A stretch of 64,000 bases of DNA from Escherichia coli. GTDB lineage: Bacteria; Pseudomonadota; Gammaproteobacteria; Enterobacterales; Enterobacteriaceae. This document shows, in pieces, positions 19,062 to 19,730 of this stretch (positions within the stretch are counted from its first letter, which is position 1; every line of letters begins with the position of its first letter). The DNA lies in NCBI RefSeq assembly GCF_003334785.1, contig NZ_QOWV01000017.1; one strand, 5' to 3'. A program made the position numbers and the translations under genes. The notes beneath the pieces are model-generated. The model ran no database searches, was not told the DNA's origin, and was given only the letters and a program-made list of their open reading frames with translations.

Positions 19062-19730
19062 ATGCGTGAACAAATCAAACAGGATATCGATCTGATTGAG
19101 ATTTTATTTTATCTGAAGAAAAAGATTCGTGTTATCCTTTTTATTATGGCTATATGTATGGCTATGGTGCTGTTGTTTCTGTATATCAATAAAGACAATA
19201 TAAAAGTGATTTACAGCCTAAAAATAAACCAGACAACGCCAGGTATACTTGTTAGCTGTGATAGCAATAATAATTTTGCCTGTCAGACTACAATGACTGA
19301 AGATGTTATTCAGCGAATTACTACATTTTTTCACACCAGCCCAGATGTCAAGAACAGAGAAATAAGGCTGGAATGGTCAGGAGATAAGAGAGCTTTACCA
19401 ACTGCTGAAGAGGAAATATCTCGCGTGCAGGCCTCTATTATCAAATGGTATGCGTCAGAATATCATAATGGCAGGCAAGTTCTCGATGAGATACAAACGC
19501 CTTCAGCAATTAACAGTGAGCTTTATACAAAAATGATATACCTGACCAGGAACTGGTCATTGTATCCGAACGGTGATGGCTGTGTAACTATAAGCTCACC
19601 AGAAATAAAAAATAAATACCCTGCTGCCATTTGCCTGGCTCTGGGATTTTTTCTAAGCATTGTAATTTCTGTAATGTTTTGCCTTGTCAAAAAAATGGTA
19701 GATGAATACCAACAAAACTCTGGGCAGTAA
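19062..19730 (+). CDS. ykgH: bitopic membrane protein with N- and C-terminal TM helices, AT-rich coding sequence
   Basis: 222 aa ORF; hydrophobic segments at residues ~25-45 and ~190-212; low GC relative to neighbours. Confidence 0.75.
   Translation: MREQIKQDIDLIEILFYLKKKIRVILFIMAICMAMVLLFLYINKDNIKVIYSLKINQTTPGILVSCDSNNNFACQTTMTEDVIQRITTFFHTSPDVKNREIRLEWSGDKRALPTAEEEISRVQASIIKWYASEYHNGRQVLDEIQTPSAINSELYTKMIYLTRNWSLYPNGDGCVTISSPEIKNKYPAAICLALGFFLSIVISVMFCLVKKMVDEYQQNSGQ

Follow-up and report, generated by a model that had tools for sequence, protein, structure and literature searches.

Polysaccharide co-polymerases (PCPs) of the PCP-1 class typically comprise a periplasmic domain of ~240 amino acids (aa) within a monomer of ~40 kDa (PMC12004945). 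A plasmid-borne case is provided by Wzz(pHS-2), encoded on a 3-kb plasmid of Shigella flexneri, which competes with the chromosomal WzzB for Wzy in trans (PMC12004945). In Escherichia coli, the PAI-X island was defined as four genes, and ykgH was counted outside it, with the core genes at its flank (PMC4844996, PMC3789825). The hyxA/hyxR mutants of the ST131 strain EC958 were reported to be serum-sensitive, with more O antigen of 2-6 units and less of the very long form, and the authors of that study offered "no functional prediction" for the mechanism (PMC3789825). The present analysis concerns ykgH as found in a 64,000-nucleotide stretch of E. coli DNA (contig NZ_QOWV01000017.1 of assembly GCF_003334785.1), referred to as a whole as the window. 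The accessible part of the literature mentioning this gene gives it no function. Its product, YkgH, is very probably a member of the polysaccharide co-polymerase superfamily in a short form, and the reading preferred here, to which a rough probability of 0.4 is given as a whole explanation, is that of a stand-alone short PCP acting on Wzy-dependent chain length.

The gene order in the window is betTIBA-ykgH-ykgGFE, as in E. coli K-12. The ykgH open reading frame (ORF) is 100% identical to the annotated K-12 ykgH between betA and ykgG, and a 1.1-kb stretch spanning it likewise matches K-12 chromosomes at 100%, in the order betA - ykgH - ykgG. The gene and the segments of its product are as follows.

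19062..19730, + strand: ykgH coding sequence from the ORF list, with an ATG start, 222 aa and a stop.
19083..19130, + strand: N-terminal juxtamembrane motif, residues 8-23, DIDLIEILFYLKKKIR, a Wzz-type 'EIDL' and then a Lys/Arg cluster, predicted to be cytoplasmic.
19131..19187, + strand: transmembrane (TM) helix 1, residues 24-42, Kyte-Doolittle 19-residue maximum 3.04; helix 22-42 in the model.
19188..19622, + strand: PCP-like domain, residues 43-187, predicted to be periplasmic, an alpha/beta base with a short helical hairpin.
19623..19685, + strand: TM helix 2, residues 188-208, from hydropathy; helix 188-221 in the model.

Two terminal hydrophobic helices around a middle of roughly 145 residues had been read from the DNA in the original prediction, and this is borne out by both the hydropathy segments (24-42 and 188-208, enclosing a middle domain of 145 residues) and the AlphaFold helices (22-42 and 188-221). 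The accompanying label of "bitopic", which denotes a single-pass membrane protein, was wrong, as YkgH spans the membrane twice. The topology suggested by the Lys/Arg distribution and an invariant Cys pair is N-in/C-in, because a Lys/Arg cluster precedes TM1, a KK pair follows TM2, and Cys66/Cys74 would fit a periplasmic disulfide; the tail of 14 residues after TM2 is accordingly predicted to be cytoplasmic. In the AlphaFold2 model, with a predicted local distance difference test (pLDDT) score of 83.3 and a predicted template modelling (pTM) score of 0.63, TM1 is followed by a beta-strand, two helices, a beta-hairpin, a helix of 35 residues (109-143), a return helix (153-167), two short strands, and TM2. 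The helix at 109-143 is the longest, and forms with the return helix the helical hairpin of YkgH. This architecture is shared across the YkgH family, whose members have diverged to 18-29% identity and in which eight residues are invariant (D10, I25, F39, P60, C66, C74, W129, and Y186).

The central domain had been described as being of unknown function, whereas structure prediction and remote homology searches now give it a truncated PCP (Wzz-like) fold. In a Foldseek search of the PDB, approximately 45 of the best 50 matches to the model were Wzc, WzzB, KpsE, or WzzE, while nearly all of the best 50 non-self matches in AFDB50 are named chain-length determinant, GNVR, or PCP, including proteins of 200-230 aa from Kosakonia, Citrobacter, Morganella, Salmonella, and Marinomonas/marine gammaproteobacteria. 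At the level of sequence, the Pfam Wzz family PF02706 matched residues 8-44 of YkgH (18.5 bits, E=0.0025); of 10 family members, 7 were matched at E<=0.1 and none at E<=0.001. The GNVR family PF13807 was strong in one plasmid-type member (E=8e-8). A profile of the YkgH family matched WzzB (6rbg, residues 13-55) with a whole-sequence E of 2.3e-4, the N-terminal TM, middle, and C-terminal TM segments being collinear; the next match was FepE (E=0.08). The NCBIfam WzzB equivalog scored 11.6 bits on YkgH against a cutoff of 267. Both marks of the PCP superfamily are thus present, namely the two terminal TM helices (in hydropathy and model) and a predicted periplasmic fold of an alpha/beta base with an antiparallel alpha-helical hairpin. 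The long hairpin of PCP-1 is absent, given a periplasmic domain of 145 aa, a longest helix of 35 residues, and a total of 222 aa. With ~145 rather than ~240 periplasmic residues, the helical "bell" would be roughly half the usual height.

Some of the sequences involved already carry the automatic UniProt names "chain length determinant N-terminal domain" or "GNVR". Further Pfam matches of YkgH, to DUF6520, holin, and Wzy_C, overlap the TM helices and were set aside as owed to hydrophobic segments, and a phmmer search of YkgH against the PDB returned noise only, such as GPR156.

The family to which YkgH belongs is small. A word-indexed protein search found only Escherichia sequences (at least 76% identity) and one fragment, and all that its repetition with family alignments gained were Citrobacter members and two short fragments. 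Scanned exhaustively with HMMER, 1.84 billion representatives yielded 46 proteins at E<=1e-3, mostly YkgH fragments, among which about eight full-length relatives of 211-229 aa were recognised at 21-29% identity. The species spread outside E. coli is poorly sampled, in that a profile scan of genome contigs gave two Kosakonia loci and a contaminant contig, with no E. coli representative. Two matches that are 100% identical to the E. coli sequence, a 256-bp contig of a Nocardioides malaquae assembly (NZ_JADCSA010000721.1) to ykgH and an AFDB "marine sediment metagenome" entry to YkgH, look like E. coli contamination.

The settings of the relatives are predominantly mobile. A "GNVR domain-containing protein" with 27-29% identity to YkgH is carried by 41 ColE1-type plasmids of 3.0-7.5 kb from eight host genera (Escherichia, Salmonella, Enterobacter, Citrobacter, Klebsiella, Shigella, Leclercia, and Kluyvera), whose backbones encode Rop, MbeB/D, and MOBP relaxases. 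One such plasmid, of the 3-5 kb size range, is p30COLEC-3 (NZ_CP070933.1). In the plasmids examined, the ykgH-like gene is essentially the sole non-backbone gene, and the plasmid-type cluster amounts to about 1000 sequences, all on contigs of at most 7.7 kb. The homologue of Providencia rettgeri resides in an integrative element with an integrase, ArdA, and AlpA. That of Kosakonia lies 1.4 kb 3' of an AIDA/MisL-type autotransporter gene, with gene fragments between them, on an island between lacI-like and thiMD genes, and that of Citrobacter between two PapB-type (fimbrial) regulators. On a metagenome contig (L007), a family gene stands 3' of a fimbrial operon, a Wzy_C/PglL-like gene, and a ScsC-like gene. 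A second metagenome contig (L002; ERZ27287602 k141_3088) carries a hyxB orthologue followed by a ykgH orthologue, at ~50% amino-acid identity, with 71% nucleotide identity running through the 3' end of hyxB, the spacer, and ykgH. At 280-1098 of L002, the ykgH orthologue is split by an in-frame TAA and is followed by a second upaB/hyxB-like autotransporter gene (36% identical). The L002 arrangement was absent from 5426 complete E. coli genomes. Judged by the settings available, the family is a small one that travels as mobile-element cargo, and such settings imply that its members must work alone, acting on something conserved in the host.

On L007, an RVT_1 reverse-transcriptase gene was also observed among genes for chaperone-usher fimbrial subunits (2867-3886 and 5062-7866), and genes for a 605-aa Wzy_C/PglL-like and a ScsC/DsbA-like protein follow the fimbrial genes directly 5' of the family gene.

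The chromosomal gene itself had been described as AT-rich in comparison with its bet and ykgEFG flanks, which was confirmed, and its codon usage is atypical as well. Its GC content of 36.9% (36.8% at third codon positions, GC3) is the minimum among window ORFs of at least 150 aa, compared with 55-58% for the bet genes and 50-52% for ykgG/F/E; 669-bp windows as AT-rich as ykgH make up 2.3% of the 64 kb (z = -2.1), and the low-GC tract around it extends from ~18900 to 20000. The codon adaptation of ykgH, measured against the pooled window genes, is 0.575, the lowest of 43 genes, and rare codons account for 9% of the gene, including 10 ATA. The non-coding gaps, noted at about 200 bp on either side, measure 212 bp upstream (18850-19061) and 242 bp downstream (19731-19972).

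The gene was found in 5221 of the 5426 complete E. coli genomes (96%), in the great majority of them as an intact full-length ORF, the rare losses being IS1-mediated or internal deletions. When the K-12 allele was compared with that of an island-carrying strain of extraintestinal pathogenic E. coli (ExPEC), the ratio of non-synonymous to synonymous divergence (dN/dS) was 0.15 at a dS of 0.125, and the flanking dS values in the same two-strain comparison were 0.18 for ykgG and 0.21 for betA. The high prevalence, together with a dS of the same order as that of the flanking core genes, indicates that the acquisition is old rather than recent. Horizontal acquisition, as originally predicted, is supported by the tiny and patchy family on plasmids, an integrative element, and adhesin islands, but any recency is not. 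On these sequence comparisons, ykgH is regarded as anciently acquired at this locus and under purifying selection, hence presumably functional.

While ykgH does adjoin the bet genes, as had been noted, the neighbour of relevance is the PAI-X island, the boundary of which lies 108 bp upstream. The order in ExPEC is betA - ipbA(fimX) - hyxR - hyxA - hyxB(upaB) - ykgH - ykgG, with ykgH on the same strand as the island genes. Of the 5426 complete E. coli genomes, 1931 (36%) carry the ~6-kb island, and about 60% of E. coli genomes carry ykgH without hyxB. The features at this boundary are given below.

18952..18954, no strand: PAI-X junction, located by aligning K-12 with the two flanks of the island in an ExPEC strain (three-way alignment), with a 2-bp 'AT' microhomology.
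18954..19061, + strand: shared upstream segment, with a terminator-like hairpin and T-run and a promoter-like site.
18955-18983, + strand: terminator-like hairpin and T-run, imperfect or slightly degraded in K-12 and 3' of hyxB in island strains, from a scan on the ExPEC copy.

The three-way alignment revealed neither a target-site duplication nor an att-like repeat at the junction, and in view of the missing duplication, insertion and deletion of the island are not distinguishable. The 108 bp 5' of ykgH are common to island-free and island-bearing strains, and low GC is common to ykgH and PAI-X; the island may originally have ended in ykgH as its distal gene. Before the junction and 3' of betA, an 11-bp perfect inverted repeat with a 39-nt spacer was observed at 18885-18945, the folding of which is not unusual (z = -0.86). 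In several island-bearing genomes, two places matched the 1.1-kb ykgH query.

How a short co-polymerase of this kind might work can be outlined. The YkgH-family proteins would oligomerise in the inner membrane like other PCPs and act in trans on the Wzy-dependent polymerisation of glycans linked to undecaprenyl pyrophosphate in the host, that is, the O antigen and possibly the enterobacterial common antigen (ECA). By competing with, mixing into, or substituting for the resident Wzz proteins, they would alter the chain-length distribution, most plausibly towards short chains because the YkgH "bell" is short. A single gene on a multicopy plasmid or island could thereby remodel the surface, with consequences for adhesin exposure and for serum or phage sensitivity. 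That YkgH modulates chain length is a tentative proposal, with the odds leaning somewhat against it. As the next gene past hyxB, ykgH is the only PCP-like gene in the hyx neighbourhood, and it might, speculatively, be the effector behind the influence of hyxA/hyxR on O-antigen chain length: HyxA and HyxR would restrain ykgH, and a de-repressed half-height co-polymerase would yield a shift of the hyxA/hyxR type. The broadest version of the idea holds that the family is a mobile "mini-Wzz" class hijacking Wzy/Wzz for short chains, with the chromosomal YkgH as the effector of a phase-variable fimX-hyxR/hyxA switch that tunes O-antigen length and, along with it, serum resistance and the exposure of short adhesins like UpaB, and this is considered unlikely. 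Weak and circumstantial hints are that the Keio ykgH mutant was listed among altered Congo-red phenotypes (PMC5745457) and that a ykgH single-nucleotide polymorphism was acquired by an L-form line whose matrix production was enhanced (bioRxiv 2024.11.06.622226).

Several points weigh against a short PCP acting on Wzy-dependent glycans. The AlphaFold2 model was built on 10 sequences only. The resemblance to Wzz in sequence is weak and mostly limited to the N-terminal motif and TM1, and the GNVR match to YkgH itself (residues 150-212, E=0.56) falls below significance. The prolines before TM2, a motif typical of PCP-1, are not conserved in the family, where Y186 alone is invariant in this region; YkgH itself has SPEIKNKYP ahead of TM2 and a single Gly within it. 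No family member examined is located in a classical Wzy-dependent polysaccharide cluster, and the link from ykgH to a glycan is predicted only. Since K-12 makes no O antigen, the ykgH retained there must act on something else, perhaps ECA, or be idle. As to the hyx genes, two hairpins lie between hyxB and ykgH, of which one, in the shared segment, is terminator-like; this makes co-transcription unlikely and any link a regulatory one. The gene is not among the 56 EC958 serum-resistome genes, an absence that would be expected if its loss were neutral and that furnishes no evidence for the idea. In the accessible part of the supplement of PMC4844996, which covers the regulon of AutA/AutR (= HyxA/HyxR), neither ykgH, wzz, nor fepE was found by name. 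The paper on the Salmonella T1-antigen locus, which shares a FimX/HyxA-type switch, mentions no Wzz or co-polymerase.

The recurrent proximity to adhesin genes raises the alternative that YkgH is an inner-membrane or periplasmic factor that helps UpaB/HyxB-type autotransporters or fimbriae to be secreted, anchored, or displayed. Family genes do lie 3' of autotransporters in three settings (ExPEC hyxB-ykgH, L002, and Kosakonia), one copy is 3' of a chaperone-usher fimbrial operon, and the Citrobacter copy is placed between PapB-type regulators. Such a role is nonetheless rather improbable, given that the 60% or so of E. coli genomes without hyxB keep ykgH under purifying selection, that no adhesin gene is near the plasmid copies or the Providencia copy, and that the Kosakonia gene pair is 1.4 kb apart with gene fragments in between. 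AT-rich islands gather unrelated cargo, so that adjacency may be incidental, and we know of no PCP-fold protein that assists type V secretion. The mobile settings could instead be explained if YkgH protected its host or element through phage exclusion or a block to entry or conjugation, the PCP fold being reused as an oligomeric scaffold with no glycan role. Where such elements carry a single cargo gene, its role is often defensive; small mobilizable plasmids have the ykgH-like gene as their only cargo, and in Providencia it adjoins ArdA and an integrase. No PADLOC defence model was credibly matched by YkgH, however, no homologue was present among 50,697 phage records, and all the fold matches are glycan co-polymerases, leaving exclusion improbable. 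Altered O-antigen length is a known route to phage resistance, by which this alternative partly collapses into that of a chain-length modulator.

A further possibility is that ykgH is a decaying relic, a leftover distal gene of PAI-X that is functionless in K-12, a strain without O antigen. Many truncated, frameshifted, or internally deleted alleles are encountered, IS1 insertion and IS1-mediated deletion have occurred in some strains, and the L002 orthologue has an in-frame stop. Furthermore, the gene is AT-rich and H-NS-bound (PMC3946193) and, according to the accessible part of the strain-engineering literature, widely used as a neutral integration site. Decay is quite improbable all the same when set against the dN/dS of 0.15, which attests constraint since the divergence of the two compared alleles, the ORF left intact in the great majority of the 5221 carrier genomes, the eight residues that are invariant at 18-29% identity, and the about 1000 sequences of plasmid copies kept as sole cargo. 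Within the PCP superfamily, YkgH might also be of the PCP-2b (CpsC/CapA-like) type and serve, from the membrane, to activate a cytoplasmic tyrosine kinase that is a separate protein. It is of the same size class (~220 aa, two TM helices, and a small external domain), its best NCBIfam match is TIGR01006 of the CpsC family (E=0.013), and Foldseek matches include CpsC/CpsD-type proteins. The bacterial tyrosine kinases (BY-kinases) Wzc and Etk of E. coli carry their own PCP domain, though, TIGR01006 scored 14.9 bits against a cutoff of 296, no kinase gene is found beside any family member examined, and only 14 residues form the cytoplasmic tail, rendering this assignment highly improbable.

Signals for expression and RNA structure around ykgH include two further features.

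19034-19061, + strand: promoter-like GCGACA-16-TATATT, from a promoter scan.
19826..19866, no strand: perfect-stem hairpin with 19-nt arms, a 3-nt loop, and no U-tract, between the convergent ykgH and ykgG, from an inverted-repeat search.

Given the two hairpins that set it apart from hyxB, ykgH is probably a transcription unit of its own. It was reported to be transcribed in UTI89, where cathelicidin down-regulated it (PMC6737244), and in K-12 too (PMC8175672). The GCGACA/TATATT hexamers were previously reported as the ykgH RpoD site in the betA-ykgH spacer, identified by systematic evolution of ligands by exponential enrichment (SELEX) together with H-NS binding (PMC3946193). As the promoter of the annotated ykgH, this site was rejected, for it ends one base before the ATG and a leaderless mRNA would be needed. 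Downstream, the folding z of the 19826-19866 hairpin is -6.6 and -6.7 on the two strands, and the hairpin is likely to form the 3' end of, or to stabilise, the ykgH transcript as well as the "ykgH 3'UTR" (untranslated region) RNA. The latter is a putative Hfq-associated small RNA reported in the hairpin region by RIL-seq (ligation and sequencing of interacting RNAs); northern blots gave no confirmation of it (PMC5145812, PMC8175672). An Rfam search of 18700-20200 gave nothing credible, only a sub-threshold plant miRNA match on the hairpin. Elsewhere in the window, AT-rich troughs of 28-37% GC were observed at 12000-12900, 22800-23250, 24150-24450, and 25650-26100; as placed by the K-12 annotation offset, the first three are intergenic or regulatory (pdeL/yahV-betT, ykgE-rclR, and rclR-rclA, respectively) and the last overlaps the small rclB gene.

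Among E. coli K-12 genes, ykgH is one of those still lacking a function, and it is routinely treated as a neutral site for integration. Placement among the co-polymerases makes its function cheaply testable. New here are the assignment of a short Wzz-like fold, the small mobile family that includes sole-cargo plasmids, and the proposed link to the hyxA/hyxR O-antigen phenotype. This link bears on the decade-old puzzle of how, in the pandemic ST131 clone, O-antigen length and serum resistance come to be altered by hyxA/hyxR. With a natural PCP of half height, "molecular ruler" models could be better tested against other models of chain-length control. Should the plasmid relatives be active, a surface-remodelling function would fall to many of the small "cryptic" ColE1 plasmids found in Enterobacteriaceae, with a bearing on serum resistance, phage susceptibility, and the design of glycoconjugate-vaccine strains.

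In comparison with the known systems, the PAI-X island is abutted by ykgH, which shares its strand and its low GC, and the hyxB-ykgH adjacency is kept in the divergent L002; the two differ in distribution, 96% of genomes having ykgH and 36% the island. The PCP-2b proteins (CpsC, CapA, and Wzd; TIGR01006) resemble YkgH in length (about 220-250 aa) and in having two TM helices and a small external domain, and they match it weakly in profile and fold. They use an adjacent cytoplasmic tyrosine kinase via their C-terminal tail, in contrast to the short tail of YkgH and its lack of a kinase neighbour. With the PCP-1 proteins (WzzB, WzzE, and FepE; PF02706; 6rbg, 8bhw, and 9ski), YkgH has in common the terminal TM helices, the "EIDL" juxtamembrane motif, and the periplasmic alpha/beta base with its antiparallel helical hairpin; they are among its best fold matches, and WzzB is its best sequence-profile match. 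It is shorter than they are, at 222 aa against about 325-380 aa and with 145 rather than about 240 periplasmic residues, its family has no conserved proline-rich motif before TM2, and its gene is AT-rich, taxonomically restricted, and located outside the O-antigen/ECA clusters. Wzz(pHS-2) is a full-length FepE-type PCP-1b that gives very long chains, whereas the YkgH family is of short form with a predicted activity, and no significant sequence relationship links the two beyond the superfamily (FepE, E=0.08). Yet in Wzz(pHS-2), as in the 41 ColE1-type plasmids bearing YkgH-family genes, a co-polymerase, predicted as such in the latter, is the cargo of a very small plasmid.

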